Shown here: piece by piece, positions 24,458-64,000 of the stretch
Position numbering within the stretch: the stretch's first letter is position 1
Layout: the number at the start of each line of letters is the position of its first letter
Source of the DNA: Candidatus Berkelbacteria bacterium
GTDB lineage: Bacteria; Patescibacteriota; UBA1384; 2-12-FULL-50-11
Direction: 5' to 3'
Length of the DNA stretch: 64,000 nucleotides
NCBI GenBank assembly: GCA_016213365.1
Contig: JACRAP010000023.1
Span: 15,871 to 79,870 of the forward strand
The notes under the pieces: generated by a model
Databases searched by the model: none
The model's input: the letters and a program-made list of their open reading frames with translations, nothing else
What the model was told of the DNA's origin: nothing
Position numbers and translations under genes: made by a program

Positions 24458-24533
24458 TGGCAGGGGTGACAGGATTCGAACCTGCGACCTACGGTTTTGG
24501 AGACCGGCGCTCTACCAACTGAGCTACACCCCT
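24458..24533 (-). tRNA. tRNA-Trp (anticodon CCA)
   Basis: Manual fold of aggggtgtagctcagttggtagagcgccggtctccaaaaccgtaggtcgcaggttcgaatcctgtcacccctgcca: 7-bp acceptor stem, anticodon loop CUCCAAA, T-loop TTCGAAT, CCA encoded. Confidence 0.9.
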
Positions 24534-24722
24534 GCCATAAGCAAACTATCACAGCGCTCTTCCGGGGTTTAAGCGTCGCAAGTATGCGACAAGCTTAAAC
24601 CCGTCTCGGAGGCTCGAACTGAAACTGTTCAGTTCTCGCTGGCTCCTCGACCCAACTGAGCTACACCCCTAAGACTGGCAGTGCCAGTTACATAATTTTA
24701 CCAGTTTTTTATGAGTAATCTA

Positions 24723-24887
24723 TTACTTACTCTCTTTGTGAGTAGTCTTGGCTTTACAGCGATTGCAAAATTTGTTCAGCTCTAGGCGAACCGTCGTGTT
24801 GGTTTTATTCTTTTCGGAATAATAATTTCTTTCTTTGCAAACAGAGCACTCAAGTGTGATCGGTTCGCGAGTTTTTTTCTTTGCCAT
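24723..24887 (-). CDS. rpmG: 50S ribosomal protein L33 (54 aa); not in the supplied ORF track
   Basis: Manual translation MAKKKTREPITLECSVCKERNYYSEKNKTNTTVRLELNKFCNRCKAKTTHKESK shows the C4 zinc-ribbon L33 pattern. Confidence 0.85.
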   Translation of the reverse strand: MAKKKTREPITLECSVCKERNYYSEKNKTNTTVRLELNKFCNRCKAKTTHKESK

Positions 24888-24931
24888 GATTAGTAGTTAT
24901 TTTACCTTAAATAATTAATAATTTAAATACT

Positions 24932-25007
24932 TGGAGCCAGGAACGGGGATTGAACCCGTGACCTCGTCATTACCAATGACGTGCTCTACCAACTGAGCTA
25001 CCCTGGC
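24932..25007 (-). tRNA. tRNA-Thr (anticodon GGT)
   Basis: gccagggtagctcagttggtagagcacgtcattggtaatgacgaggtcacgggttcaatccccgttcctggctcca. Anticodon loop UUGGUAA; CCA encoded. Confidence 0.85.
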
Positions 25008-25011
25008 AATG

Positions 25012-25095
25012 TGCTGGGTGAGGGATTCGAACCCCCGAAGGCACAAGGCCATCGCGTTTACAGCGCGCTACGTTTGACCACTTCGCTAACCCAGC
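25012..25095 (-). tRNA. tRNA-Tyr (anticodon GTA) with a long variable arm
   Basis: gctgggttagcgaagtggtcaaacgtagcgcgctgtaaacgcgatggccttgtgccttcgggggttcgaatccctcacccagca. Anticodon loop CUGUAAA. Confidence 0.85.
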
Positions 25096-25742
25096 ATATT
25101 ATTTATTGCGTATCTTATGTCGTCCATTAGGTTATCCCACAAACGCTTGTCTGCATAGCGTATATGAACTAATCCGTTTTTCATTTTATCATTATGATTA
25201 CTGGTTAGTCCAGATTTAATATATGGTTTTGTAAACTGAGATTTAGGTATATCTAGTAGTTTAGACCAGTAACTAATAATTTTACCAACATCCCTATTTT
25301 CATGCGTGTATAAATAAACCCTTAGCTTCTCTTCATTGATTTGATAAATCTCCCTAAGCATTCTTAAGAAAATAGAAATTACTTGCGGATCTGAATTTGC
25401 TAGGTCTACAACACCGAATGATTTTTTTGAACCTTCACCTAGATATATAAAGAGTCCGGCAATAAATAACTCATTTTGTTTTGTGTTCAGTCTTGTTAAC
25501 TTCGAGTAACTCAATGGTTTTGATAAAAAAGTTAGCTTATTTGAATATACCGTTGTTCTTCTAGGAATTTCTCTCCGTTTAAGGGTTCTATATATTGACC
25601 ATTGAGAAATATTCAAAATATTTGCTATTTGTGGCGCACTCTTTCCCTGTGAATATAAATCACAAATCGATATATCTATATTTTCTTGCATTTGAATAAT
25701 AATACACAAATCAGTATCCACTTGCACTTCAAACCGAGCCAC
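25086..25742 (-). CDS. HTH plus LAGLIDADG-like (homing-endonuclease-like) protein wedged between tRNA-Tyr and tRNA-Thr
   Basis: N-terminal HTH (SAPQIANILNISQWSIYRTLKR) followed by ELFIAGLFIYLGEGSKK, which resembles a LAGLIDADG motif (GLxIxLG-acidic-G). The ORF ends overlap both flanking tRNA genes; alternative start at the MQEN Met (25691). Confidence 0.45.
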   Translation of the reverse strand: MARFEVQVDTDLCIIIQMQENIDISICDLYSQGKSAPQIANILNISQWSIYRTLKRREIPRRTTVYSNKLTFLSKPLSYSKLTRLNTKQNELFIAGLFIYLGEGSKKSFGVVDLANSDPQVISIFLRMLREIYQINEEKLRVYLYTHENRDVGKIISYWSKLLDIPKSQFTKPYIKSGLTSNHNDKMKNGLVHIRYADKRLWDNLMDDIRYAINNMLG

Positions 25743-25808
25743 CTGTCGGATTCGGACCGACGACCTGCTGTTTACAAAACAGCTGCTCTACCGCTGAGCT
25801 AAGGTGGC
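25737..25808 (-). tRNA. tRNA-Thr (anticodon TGT)
   Basis: gccaccttagctcagcggtagagcagctgttttgtaaacagcaggtcgtcggtccgaatccgacaggtggct. Anticodon loop UUUGUAA. Confidence 0.85.
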
Positions 25809-48518: not shown

Positions 48519-50213
48519 CTACCTTAACTTATAATAATTTGCCATCCAGTTTGCGATTCTTTCAAAAGTTGGGGCAACGAAAGCGCTGGCAAATTGCGCG
48601 GTTTTTGGGCTATCGATCCGGACTACCATTACGTATTTTGGATCTTCTACCGGAAAGAAGCCAGCAAATGTTCCGATATATTTGTTTTTATAGTATCCGC
48701 CATCAGGCGACGGGATTTGAGCAGTACCAGTTTTACCAGCAACTGTTACCCCAGGCACACTAACACGCTTTTTCCCAAAATTTTCAATCACCGCTTTAAG
48801 CATCTGTTTTATTTCAGCGCTAACTTCTTTTGAAATAATTTGCTCACCAGATGTTTTACGTTCTATCACAATTTCTTTCCCGTTTTGAATCGTACTTTGT
48901 ACAATATACGGATTTACACTTATGCCTCCGTTGGCAAGCGTGCTATACATTTTTGCAAGCTGTACAACAGTCGCCGAGATTCCTTGGCCGAAGGCGGCAG
49001 TCGAGCGCAGTAAATCGTTCCATTCTTTTTCTGGCGGCAATCTACCCGATTGTTCGCCGATAATATCTATATTAGTCTTTGATCCTAAGCCAAATTTTTC
49101 AAAATACTCGCGTTCTTTTTTTGCTCCAATTAAACTACTTACCCATACCATCTGCACGTTGTCGGAGTTAACTAGCACTTCTGTCATCGTTTCGTTTCCA
49201 AATGCCTTGTCTTCTGCGTTGGTTATTTTATAACCCAAAACCTCAACCTCTGCGCCGGCGTTATGCTGTGTGTCTGATTTTACTAATTTCTCGTTTAGTG
49301 CCATCGACATTGTAATTGGCTTAATAACACTTCCTGGTTCGTAAATGTTACTAGCGGCACTAAGCAAGAATCTCGACTGCTCTTCGCCGCTTAATTTATT
49401 GTAATTGTTTGGATCAAACGTTGGTTGCGATGCCGCTGCGATGATCGCACCGGTTTTTGGGTCCATTACTAGTACCGATCCACGCTCGGCTTTAAAATCC
49501 TTAATTGTTTTTAACAATTCTTGCTCAACCACGTACTGCAAATTGTAGTCGATCGTTAATACGATATCGTTTCCGTTCACCGAGTCTCTGACTCCTAAAA
49601 TGCTAATTAATTTTCCAAAGGCGTCGTTTCTAACTGTTTCACTGCCGCTTTTACCGCTTAGCTCGTTATCGTAAATTGCCTCAACGCCGTATTTACCCTT
49701 GCCGTCTGCGCCCACAAAGCCCATTATTTGGGCCGCTATCTTATCTGCTTCTGGATACACCCTAACAACACGTGGCTGAAGGGTAACGCCTCGATAATCT
49801 TTTTCTTTAATTTTACTGGCTGTTTCGGTTGTTAAATTATCGAGAATCGCAGGCACATAAACTTTATCGTTATTAATTTTGCTATACACTTCCTCGATAT
49901 TTAATTGTGGCAAATCTTCTTTTAGTAGTTCAAGTAATTTTTTCTTATCCTTTACTGAGCGCGGAGTGATAAGTAACGAGTATTGCCACTCGCTTGCGGC
50001 TAAGGAGTAATATTTACCGTCACGATCTTTTGCTAAAATCTGCCCTCGCTGTGCCGGAGTTGCGCTAGTACTTATCGATTGTTCCTCTGCTTTTGAGGCG
50101 TAACTTTTATGATCTAAAACTTGTTTTTCAAACAGAAAAAACATATACAAACCACCGGCAAAAAAGAGCAGAGTGTAAATTGTAAATATTCTGTCAATCT
50201 TTGCCATAGGCAA
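48519..50213 (-). CDS. ftsI: Penicillin-binding protein FtsI-like (class B transpeptidase)
   Basis: N-terminal TM plus dimerisation domain; SxxK (SVIKP), SDN and KTGTA motifs. Confidence 0.9.
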   Translation of the reverse strand: MPMAKIDRIFTIYTLLFFAGGLYMFFLFEKQVLDHKSYASKAEEQSISTSATPAQRGQILAKDRDGKYYSLAASEWQYSLLITPRSVKDKKKLLELLKEDLPQLNIEEVYSKINNDKVYVPAILDNLTTETASKIKEKDYRGVTLQPRVVRVYPEADKIAAQIMGFVGADGKGKYGVEAIYDNELSGKSGSETVRNDAFGKLISILGVRDSVNGNDIVLTIDYNLQYVVEQELLKTIKDFKAERGSVLVMDPKTGAIIAAASQPTFDPNNYNKLSGEEQSRFLLSAASNIYEPGSVIKPITMSMALNEKLVKSDTQHNAGAEVEVLGYKITNAEDKAFGNETMTEVLVNSDNVQMVWVSSLIGAKKEREYFEKFGLGSKTNIDIIGEQSGRLPPEKEWNDLLRSTAAFGQGISATVVQLAKMYSTLANGGISVNPYIVQSTIQNGKEIVIERKTSGEQIISKEVSAEIKQMLKAVIENFGKKRVSVPGVTVAGKTGTAQIPSPDGGYYKNKYIGTFAGFFPVEDPKYVMVVRIDSPKTAQFASAFVAPTFERIANWMANYYKLR

Positions 50214-57122: not shown

Positions 57123-57704
57123 ATGAAAAAGGGTTATACAATTATCGAGCTATTAGTAGTGATTTCTATCGCTGGAATTTTAATGAGTTTGGGCGCCTAT
57201 TCCTGGAATTCGGTGGCATCAAGATCGCGCGACAATACTCGTAAAACTGATCTTGAGCGGATAAAAACTGTTTTGGAACAGTACGCTAGCGATAATAGAA
57301 GTTATCCGAAAGTAAATACAGATAGTGGTATGAAATTAGTTGCCGAGTATCAACTAAATAACAGCTGTACTGGTTCAACTGAAGATAGTAGATTGTATCC
57401 AAAATACATTGCAATAATTCCTACCGACCCAAAAAAGAAAATCGAAAATTGTTCAGACGTAACTGTTACAGACCAACATGGCTATTATTTGTATTTGAGT
57501 TCCGGCGATCCATCACAACAAGGCAACGCAACCGGTTATGCATTAATGGCTACCCTGGAAAAAGAAACTGATAGGATTTCCGACAACAACAATCCGCTGA
57601 AAAATGGGTCTAATTTGTTAAATTATTCAGTTTATAAAAATAACGAAAGTGCTTTCGATCAAAATTATATAATTTTCGGCGGATTAAATCGAAGCTCAAA
57701 TTAG
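57123..57704 (+). CDS. Pilin-like protein (prepilin-type N-terminal cleavage/methylation domain)
   Basis: MKKGYTIIELLVVISIAGILMSLGAYSW. ORF 57075..57704; ATG at 57123. Confidence 0.7.
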   Translation: MKKGYTIIELLVVISIAGILMSLGAYSWNSVASRSRDNTRKTDLERIKTVLEQYASDNRSYPKVNTDSGMKLVAEYQLNNSCTGSTEDSRLYPKYIAIIPTDPKKKIENCSDVTVTDQHGYYLYLSSGDPSQQGNATGYALMATLEKETDRISDNNNPLKNGSNLLNYSVYKNNESAFDQNYIIFGGLNRSSN

Positions 57705-57934
57705 TTTTTGCCTGCTAATACAAACAGAAAAGCGCTGATTCCAACCGAGCCAAAGCCGCTCCAAAGTAGTATTGTACTTAAGTCGTAACCGGTATTTTCT
57801 ACGCTCCCGGCTTTTAAATCGCCACCGCCAATAACTGTTGTGGCGATAAGAATTACACCAAGAATAATAAATAAACTGGCGAAAATTATTTTTACTTGTC
57901 TGCTCATTGGCTTAATAATAGCAAAAAAAGCCAT
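57701..57934 (-). CDS. Small two-TM hypothetical membrane protein
   Basis: 77-aa ORF with two hydrophobic helices; weak support. Confidence 0.3.
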   Translation of the reverse strand: MAFFAIIKPMSRQVKIIFASLFIILGVILIATTVIGGGDLKAGSVENTGYDLSTILLWSGFGSVGISAFLFVLAGKN

Positions 57935-58077
57935 CGTTGGCTTATTTCTGTTTTTATTAATAGTGCGAGAAATGCATTCTCGAACGATTTTTTGGCGCTT
58001 TGCCTTATTATAGGCGTGACCAATCCTGCGAAGCGTTAAAGATTAGTGAGAGGATGTATTTTTCGCGCATTAAGTTC

Positions 58078-58344
58078 TTTGTCTTGGCGCTGGGCTTCCG
58101 AAAGCTGGCGGATTCCCGGGAGCTGTTAGCTCCGAGTATACTCGGCTTGCGCCTCGTTACTCGTCGTCCAACCTCGCTTTATTTAATCCTTAAGTGTTTT
58201 GTCTTGGCGCCGGTCTACGACGAACGAGCGAAAGCGAGTGAGGCGCAGACAAGTGCCTAGTTTTTTTGAGTCCTTAGTCTTGGCACTGGGCTACGGCGAG
58301 CCGCAGGCGAAACGCAGAGCGGCGCCTGTTTTGGTTTGAGTGTT
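58078..58344 (-). repeat. Three tandem degenerate copies of the 5S rRNA 3' portion, downstream of 5S
   Basis: ttgtcttggcgc(c/t)gg(t/g)ct recurs at 58078, 58198 and 58275, and in the real 5S at 58345. Unit 1 also repeats cccgggagctgttagctccgagtat from within the 5S. Confidence 0.6.
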
Positions 58345-58345
58345 T

Positions 58346-58468
58346 TGTCTTGGCGCCGGTCTACTTTCCCGGGAGCTGTTAGCTCCGAGTATCATCGATG
58401 CTGATGGGCTTAACTGCTCTGTTCGGTATGGGAAGAGGTGTACCCCCATCGCTTTAAGCACCAAGACA
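58346..58468 (-). rRNA. rrf: 5S ribosomal RNA
   Basis: Minus sense tgtcttggtgcttaaagcgatgggggtacacctcttcccataccgaacagagcagttaagcccatcagcatcgatgatactcggagctaacagctcccgggaaagtagaccggcgccaagaca. Helix I pairing and conserved CCGAAC/AGUA motifs. Confidence 0.85.
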
Positions 58469-58730
58469 AAAAACTCAAAATGTTCGAGTGTGTTCCAAAC
58501 TAAAGTTGAAGATACTTCTTCTAGTAGCTGTTTACTCTTTCCTGCCTAGAAATATCGCAATTACATAAACGATGCTATCGAGATTGCTCTCGACAGTTAA
58601 ACAGAAAAGAGAAAGTAATTCATGGACCTATAAGTATCCCTTGGCTCAACGCGTTACCGCGCTTACACCTAGGACCTTTCAACCCGGTAGTCTTCCGGGG
58701 GTCTCATAACGAAGATTAATCTTGGGACCT

Positions 58731-58761
<31 letters not shown>

Positions 58762-59039
58762 AGTTATGATCGTAGCTACTCGACAGTGCCCTTGGCAGGA
58801 CAGCCGATACACCAGCGGATCATCCGCTCCGGTCTTCTCATACTAGGAGCCGCCTCCCTCAATCTTCCGCGCTTACAGCAGATGAGGACCGAACTGTCTC
58901 GCGACGTTCTGAACCCAGCTCGCGTACCCTTTTAATTGGCGAACAGCCAAACCCTTGGGACCTTCTCCAGCCCCAGGATAGGATGAGCCGACATCGAGGT
59001 GCCAAACTGCGCCGTCTCTGTGGACGATTGGGCGCAATC

Positions 59040-59076
<37 letters not shown>

Positions 59077-59236
59077 GCCGGCCGTCTCGTACTGAAACCG
59101 GCTGGATCACTTACGCCTGCTTTCGCACCTGCTCGGCTTGTAGGCCTCACAGTCAAGCTCGCTTTTGGGTATACCCTATCGGTACGATTTCCACCCGTAC
59201 CTAGCGAACCTTTGCACGCCTCCGTTACCTTTTAGG

Positions 59237-60123
59237 CAATTTTGTTAACTTAGTTTGTATTTCATCGAGGGAATTATATGGTTTGACACCAATAAGGTAA
59301 ATTTCTCAATTTGACTGGCGGGAATATAGATCTGGTACCCGTCTAACTGCCTCCGAAGCGTCGTCGTAATTACGAATTGGTTCTTCAACAAATCTTGCAA
59401 ATAACTAACACTTTGAACATCAAATGCTTGAGTATTTAGTATTTTTGCGCGATGTTTAGCTGACTTGGATGACCCATCATCCATAAACCAAACCGCTAAT
59501 GATAATTGCGTGACAAATCGTGAAATTGTTCCTGGAATTATCTTTTTTCCTTCTCGATAGAAGAGCTTTCCATACGGCGACAAAGACTCAAGGCCCAAGG
59601 TATTAAAGTAGTAGTTTCTACTTTGCTTACCATTCCTATGCTTTTCTTTTGCTTTTGGTTTCGTCCTTACAAGATTATGTAGTTCGGAGTAAATCCATTC
59701 CACATACTCTTTGTGAGCGAACGATTGCTCAACTTTCAAACGATATGTTCTGCCGTTATTCTGAGTTTCTAAATGTCCGTCACCCAACATTAGTCCGACA
59801 ATTATTTCTATTTGACGGGGCGTTAGATTAACAGATTTTGAAATATCATGAATTTCTGCGGTATTCATACCTATTTAAGCGTCTTGTACAAAGACAAGAC
59901 TCTGTATGTCGCCATACAGTTCAGACTATATCTTCGCTAGAATTTGTAAATACTATTTTCTAGCGCTCGGCGTGTAGTCGTTGAGGGGTCAATTCATTTC
60001 TGAACGACTTCCCTGCTGATTGTCTCCATAGTCCAACCGATTACTCGTTGGAATTTTAGAGAGGTCCCAGCATATAGCCAAGATGCCCCTTTCTGATCGT
60101 TATTATACTGGTGATCATGGTCA
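59237..60123 (-). mobile_element. Group I-type intron in 23S rRNA domain V (887 nt) carrying a homing endonuclease ORF
   Basis: Conserved exon sequence gactggggcggtcgcct | cctaaaaggtaacggagg is interrupted. The 5' exon ends in U and the intron ends in G. An ORF fills the 3' two-thirds. Confidence 0.6.
59245..59868 (-). CDS. LAGLIDADG homing endonuclease (double-motif) encoded within the 23S intron
   Basis: Motif 1 RQIEIIVGLMLGDGHLE and motif 2 LSLAVWFMDDGSSKS. 207 aa. Confidence 0.85.
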   Translation of the reverse strand: MNTAEIHDISKSVNLTPRQIEIIVGLMLGDGHLETQNNGRTYRLKVEQSFAHKEYVEWIYSELHNLVRTKPKAKEKHRNGKQSRNYYFNTLGLESLSPYGKLFYREGKKIIPGTISRFVTQLSLAVWFMDDGSSKSAKHRAKILNTQAFDVQSVSYLQDLLKNQFVITTTLRRQLDGYQIYIPASQIEKFTLLVSNHIIPSMKYKLS

Positions 60124-61415
60124 AGGCGACCGCCCCAGTCAAACTACCCATCTGACACTGTCTTAGTTGTTTTTGCAACTAGTGAGTCTCAAAACAAACG
60201 AAGGGTGGTATTTCACTGTTGTCCGAAGACTCCCACCTATGCTACACATCATGTGCCCTGAAACAATATCAAACTGTAGTAAAGCTCCACGGGGTCTTTC
60301 CGTCTTGCTGCAAGTAGCCGGCATCTTCACCGGCAGTGTAATTTCACCGAGTCCCTCTTTGAGACAGTTTTCAAGTCGTTATGCCATTCGTGCGGGTCGC
60401 TACTTATGCGACAAGGAATTTCGCTACCATAGAACGGTTATAGTTACCGCTGCCGTTCACTCGGGCTTAAATTCGAGCCTCGTCCCGCACTTTGAACACA
60501 AAGTGCTAAATCCTAAATCCTAAGTTCTAAACCCTAAACAGACAAATCCGTTTTGAGTTTAGTGTTTCGAATTTTGAATTTTCACCTTGTGCGCAAGGTG
60601 CGGGAGTCAGCCCTCCTCGTAACCTACGAGCACTGGGCAGGCATCAGCCCCTATACATCTCGTGAGAGATTTGCAGAGACCTAAGTTTTTGTTAAACAGT
60701 CGCTTGAAAGTCATTTGCTGCGGCCAGCACCGCTGCTCCGCACCAGTAAATCCTAAATAACAAGTACTAAATTCAAAACTTGAATTTAGTGTTTTGTGCT
60801 TAGAATTTGCCAATGCGAAGCATTGGGACTGGCAGTCCATATTCCGAAGTTACGGACGCTTTTTTGCCGAGTTCCTTAAAGAGGGTTCACTCGACCACCT
60901 GAGGCTACTCGCCTCAACTACCTGTGTCGGTTTGCGGTACGGATACTAAACATAGTTGACTTAAGAATTTTCTTGCCAGACTTTGAGGTGCTTTCGAAAT
61001 CCAATAATCTTAGCACCCACGGGTCCGTGTCTTCTTAAGGTAGTTGTTTAGTAGTGACGGAATATTAACCGTCTGAACATCGGGGTATTCCCTTAGATCC
61101 GACTAACCCACAGACGATTGGCGTTGCTGTGGAAACCTTAGATATGCGGTGACCAGGGTTCTCACCTGGTTTTCGTTACTCATGCCAACATTCGCACTTC
61201 GTATCGCTCCACAGTCGCTTACGCTTCTGCTTCACTGCAATACGAACGCTCCTCTACCACTCGCAGATAAATCTGCGAATCCTAAAATTCGGTACCTAGC
61301 TTAAGCCCCGTTGAATTTTCCGCGCAAAAAGGCCTAGAGGATTTCTACGCCGCGAAGGCTTTCGCCGACACATTGTAGAGAATCGTAGGATCGACTAGTG
61401 AGCTGTTACGCTTTC

Positions 61416-61447
<32 letters not shown>

Positions 61448-62033
61448 TAGTTGTCTACGCCTTTCCACTTCGTTTTCCACTTAGCTAGAATTTAGGGACC
61501 TTATTTGTAGGTCTGGGCTCTTTCCCTTTAGACCATGCAGCTTAGCCCGCACAGTCTGACTGTATATCCCAAACGGTGTGTATTCGGAGTTTGATAGGAG
61601 GTGAGAGCTTGCGCCCCCAAACTCCTTTCAGTGCTCTACCCCACACCATGCGGATATACGCTATACCTATATATATTTCGAGGAGAACCAGCTATCTCCG
61701 GGTTCGATTAGTATTTTACCGCTTACCACAAGTCATCCCCCAATTTTGCTACATTGGTGGGTTCGGCCCTCCCTGCTAGGTTTCCCTAGAGTTCAGCCTG
61801 CTCATGGCAAGATCACCCGGTTTCGGGTCTAATCCCTGCTGCTAACAGTCGCGCTATTAACACTCGCTTTCGCTTCGCGTTCGATGCATAACATCTTACA
61901 CTCGCAACAAAGATTAACTCGTTGGCTCATTCTTCAAAAGGCACGCCGTCATCCGCCAATTGGCGGACTCCGACTCCTTGTATGCACATAGTTTCAGGTA
62001 CTATTTCACTCCCATACTCTGGGTACTTTTCAT

Positions 62034-62064
<31 letters not shown>

Positions 62065-62975
62065 TAGATATAGTATTTAGCCTTACGGCACGATCACCGT
62101 ACCTTCCGACTGGATTACACGTGTCCAGCCGTACTCAGGATCAGTATCCAAACGGTAAAGTAGTTTAAAATACGGGACTATCACCCCCTATGGTGGTCTT
62201 TTCCAAGATCCTTCTTCTACTACTTTTTGAACTCGTTCGATTTTACAATCTGATACTGCCCTATAACCCTCGCGCATCTCATGTTGGACGCAAGCAAAAA
62301 CAAATTTTCAAAAGGCTAGATCCATTAATTTTAAAGAATCGCCTGTTACTTACTTACGCCCAAGATGAGACACACGAGTTTGGGCTTTTCCCTATTCGCT
62401 CGCCGCTACTGGGGGAATCGTTACTACTTTCTTTTCCTCCGGCTACTAAGATGTTTCAGTTCGCCGGGTGCCTCTGTCGCTTCGCTTCAAACTCAAAATT
62501 ACAAACTCTAAATCCAAAATCAAAATATCCGTTTTGAGTTTTGAACTTTGAGCTTTGAATTTAAAGTGAAGCGACATAATGTCGGTTCACGACATTGGGT
62601 TTCCCCATTCGGAAATCGCCGGATCAAAGCTTGTTGTCAGCTCCCCGACGCTTATCGCAGACTACTACGTCCTTCATCAGCTATATCTACCAAGACATCC
62701 TCTATGTGCACTTTGGTGAATTACTTACTCTGTCTTTCACGGAAAGTGAATTAGACAGAGTTACTTGACCAACTTTTTCCATTTCTGGGATACAGAAATT
62801 TGAAAGTTGGACTTTTTTGCTAAAAGTTGAAATATCTTCAACTTTAGCTTGGAACCTAGTTGTTAAGATGACGCAAGTTAACAAAAAGCCGCTGTTGGCG
62901 GCCGTAAAGTCAACCAAAAAACAGTTGGCTTTTAACCGGCTCCTCCTTTGGTTTTACTTAACATGTACCTAACAA

Positions 62976-63004
62976 TTTTAATTGATTCGTTAAGGCGTGT
63001 CAAC
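62976..63004 (-). promoter_or_regulatory. Candidate rRNA operon promoter (TTGACA, 17-nt spacer, TAAAAT) overlapping the 3' end of dut, about 230 nt upstream of the 23S 5' end
   Basis: Minus sense gTTGACAcgccttaacgaatcaatTAAAATtg. Confidence 0.45.
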
Positions 63005-63451
63005 AGGTGAATTTGCGCCCGTACTACCAAAACCACCGCGACTTTTGCTTGATAGCTTGTCCTTAGAAATTTCAACAAATTTTATTTTTGGTACTGGTAA
63101 AATCATCGCTTGGGCGATTCGCTGATATTTTTCTACTTTTACCGGCTTGTTAGTGTTATTTTGTACGATAATTTTTACCTCGTCAGTTGCCCCGCAATAG
63201 TCTGAGTCAACTGTACCTGGTGAGTTAGCGATCGAAAGCCCAGTTTTAGGAGTGCTAGATCTTGGGACAACAGCCATGTAATACCCCTTTGGAATAACAA
63301 AAACTAGGCCAGTCGGGAGATAAGCGATGCTACTAGGTTCAATAGTAACATCTTCAATTACTTCTAAGTCAAAACAGGCGGCGCCTTCGGTTTGGTATTT
63401 AGGGATATTGGCGTCTGAATTTATCCTGTGAATCTGTACATCCATACACAA
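62990..63451 (-). CDS. dut: dUTP diphosphatase
   Basis: dUTPase motifs AACFDL, VPRSS, GTVDSDYCG and a C-terminal GGFGSTG. Confidence 0.85.
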   Translation of the reverse strand: MCMDVQIHRINSDANIPKYQTEGAACFDLEVIEDVTIEPSSIAYLPTGLVFVIPKGYYMAVVPRSSTPKTGLSIANSPGTVDSDYCGATDEVKIIVQNNTNKPVKVEKYQRIAQAMILPVPKIKFVEISKDKLSSKSRGGFGSTGANSPVDTP

Positions 63452-63484
63452 AAAATAACCTAAATTCAGACAATATCAACTCAG

Positions 63485-63901
63485 TTAAAGCACCTGAATA
63501 CTGTTCAGGATATCCTTTATTTCACCTGTTACTGCCTGTGGCGTGTTTACTTCTTTTAATAGTAGCTGTGTTACCACAGTTGTGCCCGGAACGGTTAACA
63601 CAACATAAGGTTGAAGAGCGGTGCCGTTAGCTACCCAGTAACAAGTAGTTTCATCGATAACGGTGGTGCCTATCTTTTCTGTAAGTACAGGGTTAGTTGA
63701 ATTAAAACTAGAGCTACCGTCGGCGACAAATACAGTTTTCGTTTCCTCGCCTGCGAGCGCTTTTGCGTAATCGGCGCTGTTTTTTATGGTACAGCTATTT
63801 CGTAGATTGGCTTCTTGGTTAGTTGTTGCCTGGGAACATTGCTCGGACACCTTAAAACTATTTAACTGAAGCGAGCTATTAGCGGCGACCTTAAATAACA
63901 C
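63485..63901 (-). CDS. Hypothetical Ser/Thr-rich secreted or pilin-associated protein
   Basis: 138-aa ORF with no motif; Thr/Val/Asn-rich beta-type composition resembling pilin C-terminal domains. Confidence 0.35.
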   Translation of the reverse strand: MLFKVAANSSLQLNSFKVSEQCSQATTNQEANLRNSCTIKNSADYAKALAGEETKTVFVADGSSSFNSTNPVLTEKIGTTVIDETTCYWVANGTALQPYVVLTVPGTTVVTQLLLKEVNTPQAVTGEIKDILNSIQVL

Positions 63902-64000
63902 CTCAATTAGCTGTACTGAATCTGTAGTTGATGAAAGACCGGAAATGTAGTTTTTTGTATCTGTATAGTTAGCGGCACTGAAATAGAGTATCGAGTTATC

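Follow-up and report, generated by a model that had tools for sequence, protein, structure and literature searches.

Three apparent stubs of earlier 5S rRNA copies behind the single 5S gene of a Berkelbacteria rRNA operon

Introduction

Partial duplications of the 3' ends of tRNA and transfer-messenger RNA (tmRNA) genes, the att repeats, flank integrated genomic islands, and these repeats can stack. Natural transformation reportedly also involves homology-facilitated illegitimate recombination. The closest parallel to the locus described here is found in the Peptococcaceae and Pseudoalteromonadaceae, where 5S ribosomal RNA (rRNA) remnants that lack termini and contain insertions are located downstream of a normal 5S gene, sometimes in multiple copies (Stepanov and Fox, RNA 2021, PMC7812874). 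A putative terminator lies ahead of each of these remnants, which are thought to be untranscribed (PMC7812874). In the candidate phyla radiation (CPR), a survey of 645 5S genes identified no insertion of at least 100 bp (Tsurumaki et al. 2024, PMC11270868). Here, we analyze the 3' end of the 23S-5S rRNA operon in a stretch of 64,000 nucleotides (nt) from a Candidatus Berkelbacteria bacterium (contig JACRAP010000023.1), below called the window, in which an intact 5S gene is followed by three units that repeat its 3' end. Coordinates refer to the window unless preceded by the label of another locus.

Repeat units downstream of the 5S gene

The features at the end of the operon, in the order of the rRNA strand, are as follows.

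58335..58479, minus strand: extended leader/trailer stem enclosing the 5S gene, an inverted repeat (fold -55 kcal/mol, z = -5.3)
58465..58348, minus strand: intact 5S rRNA gene (Rfam RF00001, 85.6 bits, model positions 1-120)
58266..58334, minus strand: unit A, the most decayed stub, GC-rich filler GGCGCCGCTCTGCGTTTCGCCTGCGGCTCGCC followed by a copy of the 5S 3' end and trailer
58190..58265, minus strand: unit B, a 5S with its interior deleted, consisting of the helix I 5' strand, an antisense hairpin and the 3' end with trailer
58070..58189, minus strand: unit C, the 3' part of a 5S, consisting of filler with a hairpin, a helix IV/V copy, a 14-nt insert and the 3' end
57944..58069, minus strand: distal trailer without 5S similarity (39% GC)
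57921..57943, minus strand: intrinsic-terminator-like hairpin AAGCCAACGATGGCTT (57943..57928) with a T-run

The intact 5S gene, which is presumably functional, is recovered by Rfam at full length (gathering score 38) and is the only 5S gene in the window. The arms of the enclosing stem (58479..58458 and 58356..58335) are 22 nt long and 91% complementary, and the stem is likely the processing stem of the 5S precursor. A degenerate 29-nt pattern built from the four copies of the repeated motif, GWAGMCCRGYGCCAAGACWAARRACTYAA, has four matches, all on the minus strand, while 0.00 are expected from shuffled sequences. The matches are located at the end of the 5S gene (58364-58336) and in units A (58294-58266), B (58218-58190) and C (58098-58070), with start-to-start spacings of 70, 76 and 120 nt, in agreement with a preliminary description of the stretch that had reported an intact 5S followed by three repeats of its 3' end. 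The motif consists of the last 17 nt of the 5S and 12 nt of trailer, and the leader/trailer stem around the live gene explains why the repeat extends beyond the 3' end of the gene. With the copy in unit B (58190-58218) as the reference, the copy at the 5S end is 97% identical (28/29), the copy in unit C 83% and the copy in unit A 76%. The 3' ends are of two types, one of which, GTAGACCGGCGCC, is shared by the native gene and unit B, while the other, G[TA]AGCCCAG[TC]GCC ("type 2"), is shared by units A and C.

The units differ in content. Unit A ends with a copy at 58294..58266 that has the type 2 end GTAGCCCAGTGCC. Unit B starts with a degenerate helix I 5' strand, CTTGTCTGCGCC (58253-58242), corresponding to about 12 nt of the 5S 5' end, continues with an antisense copy of a conserved small hairpin (58241..58222), and ends with the 3' end and trailer (58218..58190), so that filler takes the place of 5S positions ~13-100. 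The filler of unit C holds the small hairpin AACGAGGCGCAAGCCGAGT, the core of which, CGA through GAG, is located at 58156..58141. It is followed by an exact copy of the helix IV/V segment (58140..58113), by a 14-nt hairpin, TCCGCCAGCTTTCG (58112-58099), at the site where the 5S has a single A, and by a type 2 end (58098..58070). Aligned to the 5S gene, 58113-58144 is 94% identical to 58366-58397 over 32 nt, with an exact core of 27 nt. The internal duplication noted in the preliminary description is thus present in unit C, and the 19-nt replacement described there is approximately right.

All units lack the 5' two-thirds of the 5S, of which unit B keeps only the ~12 degenerate nucleotides of the 5' end, and the three-domain fold of the 5S (helices I-V) is absent from all of them. 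What is left is the 3' strand of helix I in unit A, degenerate strands of helix I in unit B, and helix IV plus the 3' strand of helix I in unit C. Scoring of the partial copies with the Rfam 5S model RF00001, as had been proposed, gave no match to any unit even at E <= 10 (threshold 38 bits), and the only other Rfam matches over the tail at this cutoff were chance-level hits to microRNAs, small RNAs and riboswitches. A hidden Markov model (HMM) built from 12 intact Berkelbacteria 5S genes recognized unit C significantly (positions 67-116, E = 2.4e-5) and unit B marginally (positions 102-118, E = 2.4), while unit A gave no match. The units contain 5S-derived segments from which most of the molecule is gone, in line with the earlier suggestion of pseudo-5S copies. 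Tandem Repeats Finder reported no array (0 rows at a minimum score of 30). In a BLAST search of the tail against the window, the only matches outside the locus were a 14-mer in the 23S gene and exact matches of 11-13 nt, all of them at chance level (E 0.08-4.8). The GC content of the unit tail is 54%, similar to the 5S, as compared to 35-39% in the neighboring spacers and genes.

5S fragments in related genomes

To compare the region downstream of the 5S gene across related genomes, we retrieved loci by alignment of homologs to RecO, which is encoded nearby. This gave 14 syntenic loci from species-representative genomes, and more were added by exact-protein look-ups. The gene that separates the operon from the neighborhood of RecO is referred to as the small gene.

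57701..57907, minus strand: conserved 68-amino-acid (aa) membrane-protein gene, the downstream neighbor in every relative examined, with no Pfam family

It is followed by a convergent pilin-like gene (Pfam N_methyl motif) and RecO, and the gene order from 5S to RecO is conserved in all relatives. The RecO protein of the window is 100% identical to one listed at NCBI for a Candidatus Berkelbacteria bacterium, in agreement with a CPR/Patescibacteria genome. Among the RecO-synteny loci, ~10 of ~14 lineages have a terminator directly after the 5S. These simple-locus lineages are L003, L006, L007, L008/9 (with L039-45), L010, L012, L013, L015 and L035, and the P0027 lineage has a simple locus like that of L008. 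Fragments of 5S beside an intact 5S are present in the window and in four other lineages (positions in the clade HMM are given for the fragments).

L014: 5' fragment (2-61), intact 5S, 3' fragments (73-109 and a further 3' end)
L004: 5' fragment (2-44), intact 5S, 3' fragment (66-118)
L002: 5' fragment (3-18), intact 5S, 3' fragments (23-43 and 37-117)
L036/37: no 5' fragment, intact 5S followed by a terminator, then 101-118 with trailer and a second terminator

The content, order and number of the units are different in every carrier. None of the contigs of the closest RecO relatives (82%, 62%, 63% and 60% identity) extends into the 5S tail, since all stop just before it, at the small gene. 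Among the RecO relatives with contigs extending as far as the small gene, the three closest ones other than the source genome, L032, L033 and L034, break off within or just upstream of this gene, which suggests repeats or strain variation there in those populations too. We also scanned metagenome contigs with the pattern ATACTNNNGCTAACAGCNNNNGGGAA and obtained 13 loci, none of which contained a 5S gene, with weak partial HMM matches at the pattern sites (E 0.27-0.74). A scan of viral contigs with the 5S helix IV pattern yielded a single match, located inside a coding region.

In three of the carriers, an intact 5S with its own leader/trailer stem is placed between the 5' and 3' fragments of another 5S.

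L004:9364-9636: nested 5S locus
L014:2126-2475: nested 5S locus
L002:1691-2000: nested 5S locus

Two of these carriers have sisters with a simple locus, namely L007 for L004 (RecO 82% identical) and L013 for L014 (66%). For both pairs, colinearity with the sister's single 5S and its flanks extends over the outer fragments and the sequence around them, while the leader and trailer of the inner gene differ. The 3' flank of L007 is 83% identical to the outer copy of L004 and 60% to the inner copy. Likewise, the 3' end and terminator of L013 are 73% identical to the outer copy of L014 and 52% to the inner copy. The intact 5S of L004 differs from that of L007 at 27 of 118 positions, and the intact 5S of L014 has 12 differences to L008 versus 21 to its sister L013. 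These comparisons indicate that the inner genes of L004 and L014 are not the orthologs of the sisters' genes, and that the resident 5S was split and functionally replaced in place by a copy that brought its own processing stem. The method of the 645-gene CPR survey returns the intact inner gene and would thus have missed a nested arrangement. In the window, no 5' fragment is present in the 23S-5S spacer, as judged by an nhmmer search with the clade 5S HMM, which gave no match upstream of the live gene.

The small gene shows a similar pattern. In L008, L009, L010, L014 and L036, its final 7-13 codons recur once or twice behind the stop codon, and these copies encode the same peptide (ISASAE*) with many synonymous differences.

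L009:9200-9309: 3' stub region of the small gene
L014:2780-2900: 3' stub region of the small gene
L008:9240-9315: 3' stub region of the small gene
L036:735-805: 3' stub region of the small gene
L010:9245-9320: 3' stub region of the small gene

An intact copy with 3' stubs behind it is therefore a local rule for two adjacent genes, the 5S and the small gene. L036 and L037 encode identical RecO proteins and their DNA is ~100% identical save for two sites. One is a patch of 70 nt with a swapped terminator, beginning immediately behind the 5S stub (alignment columns ~480-551), and the other is an indel of 42 nt at the small gene's 3' end (columns ~735-780). These patches represent strain-level mosaicism at the stub boundaries. 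Together with the stacked small-gene stubs, they mark the region as recombinationally active.

Shared filler and shared breakpoints

The filler in the units resembles the debris in the relatives more than expected by chance. The similarity of the unit C filler to L014 was reached by 2 of 2000 shuffles, that of the interior of unit B to L014 by 4 of 2000, and that of the interior of unit A to the B-like unit of L014 by 1 of 2000, while the filler of L014 and L036 gave 12 of 2000. The relatives with homologous filler have RecO proteins that are only 45-57% identical. The presence of filler homologs in the debris of L014, L004 and L036 implies that the units predate the window lineage or were imported. 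Moreover, the window, L014 and L004 share the base at which their helix IV/V stubs begin (ATACTC). In all four genomes with a helix IV/V stub, 27 nt of the stub are identical to the live 5S of the same genome and 2-8 nt off most other genomes. The identity to the own live gene, combined with the shared breakpoint and filler, points to gene conversion between the stub and the live gene, or to repeated re-creation at a hot spot.

A small hairpin at the stub boundaries

The small hairpin in units B and C recurs in the relatives. It has the form ACGA, a stem of 2-3 bp, a loop, the return stem and GAGT, and it is placed directly 5' of the stubs. It precedes 5S stubs in the window (58156..58141, minus strand), L014, L004 and L002, and small-gene stubs in L008/9, L010, L014 (twice) and L036. 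Within interior-deleted units it is found in antisense, in the window (58225-58238, plus strand), L014 and L036/37. The hairpin copies mapped in the relatives are the following.

L014:2366-2378, 2799-2811 and 2867-2879
L010:9278-9291
L036:766-778
L008:9272-9289

The copy in unit B is identical to the small-gene copy of L010 at 16 of 16 nt, which was not reached in any of 3000 shuffles. By hand count, the inner stem pair is G-C in six copies, A-T in three and C-G in one, and the outer pair has changed from C-G to T-A once. Nearly all of the stubs begin with AT. The presence of the hairpin suggests a specific process behind the truncations.

In the window, the hairpin does not behave as a dispersed repeat, since loose matches number 8 in the 64 kb versus 8.0 in shuffles, and the full form is confined to the two copies in the tail. 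We considered a dispersed miniature inverted-repeat transposable element (MITE), repetitive extragenic palindrome (REP/BIME) or IS200/IS605-derived element and rejected it, as there is no enrichment in the window and the other good match (49651-49668) is inside a coding gene. The interior of unit B, CACTCGCTTTCGCT (58227-58240, minus strand), which goes on with CGTTCG beyond a gap of 3 nt, matches a 23S segment, cgaacgcgaAGCGAAAGCGAGTG (61861-61874), as its reverse complement. The 14-nt core of the hairpin equals a conserved 23S segment, and the match includes a pattern that is specific to the 23S of this genome. This match could be due to chance, templated filler or a shared structural motif. 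A comparison by eye with 23S-5S spacers revealed no convincing match that would derive the hairpin from there, and z-scores of -0.05 to -2.3 for the filler and stub in the relatives were unpersuasive as an indication of structured RNA.

A link to diversity-generating retroelements (DGRs) was also examined, as motif matches on viral contigs reached DGR tail-fiber loci and neighbors of the Polynucleobacter-1 RNA. The viral matches represent two to four homologous families per pattern, which is about chance for 17-19-mers, and no reverse transcriptase was found in the gene neighborhoods of the loci. The DGR link was dropped on these grounds; in addition, the differences between the copies are not adenine-specific.

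Folding and predicted transcription

Folded alone, the units have z-scores of -0.07 (A), -2.2 (B) and -2.1 (C), and the whole tail has -1.95. The proposal that every unit can form a helix-I-like hairpin does not hold, since only unit B keeps a 5' strand, in degenerate form. All 3' copies were, however, predicted to pair with the single leader/helix I 5' strand, with -32.1 kcal/mol for the native copy and -29.2, -29.9 and -32.9 kcal/mol for the units, as compared to -13.3 +/- 3.0 kcal/mol for shuffles.

Behind the 5S, the rRNA strand has no terminator-like site from 58347 to 57943, so that the hairpin at 57943..57928 comes first. This hairpin is also covered by weak Rfam alignments to terminator-bearing families. 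There is no T-run after unit A, B or C on the rRNA strand. The idea that the repeats are reiterated terminator hairpins is thus not supported, since the only good minus-strand terminator comes after all three. Its location places the stubs within the predicted transcription unit, and the units are probably transcribed as part of a 3' trailer of ~400 nt of the pre-rRNA. On the plus strand, the 5' part of unit B forms a terminator-like hairpin with TTTTTTT (58241-58258), and two further terminator-like sites are located at 57928-57943 and 57966-57982. These sites could block antisense transcription from the convergent pilin-like gene into the rRNA operon. The longest open reading frame (ORF) of the small gene (57934) begins at an ATG in the loop of the rRNA terminator hairpin, and the 68-aa version at NCBI (start 57907) better matches the homologs. 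Since only ~20 nt separate the terminator from the latter start, the small gene may depend on read-through from the rRNA operon.

Origin of the stubs

On balance, we consider it probable that the units are three stubs of earlier 5S copies that are co-transcribed with the operon and have no function of their own. According to this reading, the 5S locus of the Berkelbacteria would repeatedly have been duplicated or overwritten by another 5S, either its own or one from a related lineage. Each event would retain one intact gene with its own leader/trailer stem and leave a piece of the displaced copy, always including the 3' end and ~12 nt of trailer. The left-over pieces would then lose their interior by deletion, and gene conversion would partly re-homogenize the stubs with the live gene. 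The way in which the end types alternate (native and B versus A and C) suggests that a two-unit block was duplicated once more. The trailer would be discarded when the 5S is excised at its own leader/trailer stem.

A more specific version is tentative, and we would sooner doubt it than rely on it. An incoming 5S with its own stem would repeatedly land in or next to the resident gene and take over, with the ends of the resident remaining as stubs, and the junctions would be made by a hairpin-associated process that also remodels the 3' end of the neighboring gene. If this is true, the three stubs in the window record at least two or three take-overs. We know of no earlier description of nested 5S-inside-5S genes or of a hairpin-marked truncation rule.

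Several observations speak against stubs that merely decay. The hairpin, with its compensatory changes, is found at the stub boundaries of two genes, which random decay does not explain. All three stubs retain near-native pairing energy with the 5S leader, and 7 of 8 substitutions in the pairing region keep or improve the pairing according to a hand alignment, which is only weakly significant given transition bias. Filler without 5S homology is conserved between lineages with such divergent RecO proteins. The GC content has remained rRNA-like, while old neutral DNA in an AT-rich, streamlined genome should have drifted or been lost. Finally, the order of events in the window itself is drawn by analogy with the relatives.

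The strongest competing explanation, although an unlikely one, is that a DNA process dependent on a specific site or on the hairpin, rather than general recombination, left the stubs as scars. The candidates are an element with its integration site at the 5S 3' end, similar to islands at tRNA and tmRNA genes, and a hairpin-recognizing single-strand enzyme of the HUH/REP type. The DNA would be cut at the ACGA..GAGT hairpin and joined to "...AT" in the target. Such a process would account for a repeat that spans the 3' end of an RNA gene and its flank, as in att duplications, and for the same hairpin adjoining the stubs of two genes in either orientation, with stubs that nearly always start with AT. 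However, no integrase, transposase or cargo is present, the repeats are 70-120 nt apart, the gene order from 5S to RecO is undisturbed in all relatives, the hairpin is no more frequent in the window than expected, and the matches on viral contigs correspond to about as many independent families as chance predicts.

Hardly any likelier to be wrong, and thus also improbable, is the explanation that selection keeps the tail because it functions in cis within the pre-rRNA, with the repeated 3' strands and hairpins providing alternative or back-up partners for the leader, entry or protection sites for RNases, or decoys for a 5S-binding ribosomal protein. The location of the units inside the predicted transcript, the pairing of all four 3' copies with the leader (-29 to -33 versus -13 kcal/mol for shuffles), the rRNA-like GC content, the conservation of filler and hairpin with covariation across deep lineages, and the identity of the helix IV/V copy to the live gene in four genomes are all as a cis-acting role would have them. 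Yet ~10 of ~14 lineages, including the sisters of two carriers, lack the units, the content, order and number of which vary in every carrier, and the stub of L036/37 is set apart from its 5S by a terminator. The folding z-scores are weak, and a 5S paired with a distal copy would stay caught in its unprocessed precursor, of which a benefit is hard to see. The notion of reiterated processing hairpins is left a small chance by the retained pairing potential with the leader, and is weakened by the absence of units from most relatives and by the terminator in L036/37.

A recent origin of the units in this genome, through simple slipped-strand duplication of the 5S 3' end in tandem, is still less probable. 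The copies are direct and head-to-tail at distances of 70-120 nt, the end of unit B is identical to the native end at 28 of 29 positions, and the helix IV/V copy in unit C is exact. However, the units are not copies of one another and form no array detectable by Tandem Repeats Finder, units A and C share one end type while the native gene and unit B share another, and the filler of each unit has homologs in the debris of L014, L004 and L036. The slipped partial duplications put forward earlier are too simple an account of these differences, and recent slippage is largely refuted. An assembly artifact from mis-joined or collapsed rRNA repeats, as might be feared from the error-prone nature of rRNA-related regions and from the contigs of L032-L034 that break just before the region, is very unlikely, since the independently assembled Logan contig SRR12113407_2844815 is 100% identical over 1327 nt (57431-58757, from the 23S end through the next gene), the exact repeats of at most 27 nt are shorter than any read, and analogous structures are found in four other lineages from unrelated projects.

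If the units are stubs of displaced 5S copies, the single essential 5S of a streamlined CPR genome turns over by duplication and replacement, with gene conversion between live and dead copies, and in the relatives the live 5S can be a foreign-looking copy within the wreck of the resident gene. This bears on the trust in rRNA genes as vertical markers in the CPR, and on recombination in organisms for which a life on scavenged DNA is assumed. As for the mechanism, the hairpin at the boundaries of the stubs provides a concrete lead. When the region is annotated, the label should be 5S pseudogene fragments rather than extra 5S genes or terminators.

Other features of the operon and its surroundings

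The remaining features of the operon and its upstream neighbor are listed here.

58611..62726, minus strand: 23S rRNA gene (Rfam RF02541, 2256.8 bits)
60151..59902, minus strand: group I intron inside the 23S gene (Rfam RF00028, 71.9 bits)
59868..59245, minus strand: LAGLIDADG endonuclease ORF in the 23S gene (Pfam LAGLIDADG_2, E = 1.6e-43)
58466..58610, minus strand: 23S-5S spacer (35% GC)
62990-63451, minus strand: dUTPase gene upstream of the 23S gene

The 23S gene is 4116 nt long as compared to 2925 nt for the model, and the surplus consists of insertions. A group I intron and a LAGLIDADG_2 homing endonuclease ORF in the 23S gene are typical for rRNA genes in the CPR. Neither a 16S gene nor a tRNA was found in the 1.27 kb upstream of the 23S gene (62727-64000). 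Since the dUTPase gene occupies this space, the 16S gene is apparently not linked to the 23S-5S pair. Four clustered tRNA genes are located on the minus strand at 24461-25808 (Rfam, 55-73 bits). In the L008-like lineage, the 23S-5S spacer contains a strain-variable small ORF of 139 or 80 aa, which represents a further variable insertion within the rRNA operon.

L039:1704-2123: spacer ORF
L040:199-441: spacer ORF
L045:195-437: spacer ORF

Comparison with known systems

The att repeats share with the window an intact RNA gene that is followed by direct repeats of its 3' end. They differ in that the window contains no integrase or island, and no credible ORF between repeats that are only 70-120 nt apart, and in that the repeats in the window reach into other parts of the 5S. 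Homology-facilitated illegitimate recombination, by analogy, would leave a new copy and the old 3' part if one end were anchored in the rRNA and the other joined illegitimately, and this would also fit the 3' stubs of the small gene. It leaves unexplained the 5' stubs in L002, L004 and L014 and, taken alone, also the conserved hairpin.

The insertions described in rRNA genes of the CPR (PMC11270868) concern the same group of organisms and the same operon, with a group I intron and a LAGLIDADG gene in the 23S. Unlike the 5S genes of that survey, the relatives studied here have disrupted outer 5S copies.

The remnants of Stepanov and Fox are similar to the units in several respects. Both show high similarity to parts of the 5S, here in the form of a 27-nt exact copy, a copy with 28 of 29 identical positions and an HMM match at E = 2.4e-5. 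Both are missing one 5S terminus, or both, and contain insertions in the core, represented in the window by the 14-nt hairpin of unit C and the filler of unit B. Both are located behind a normal 5S, at times in several copies, at the distal end of the operon, which in the window is ordered 23S, 5S, A, B, C and terminator, and homologous recombination with the live gene is proposed in both cases. However, the units in the window all precede the first terminator, and a terminator before the stub is seen only in L036/37. There is a single 5S gene in the 64-kb window, and the stubs are much shorter, keeping 17-50 nt of the 5S. Furthermore, the live 5S is nested in a dead one in the relatives, and a hairpin is present at the truncation points. 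The kind of feature is thus already known, while here it occurs in a CPR lineage and inside the transcription unit, with nested displacement in the relatives and a boundary that is marked by a hairpin.

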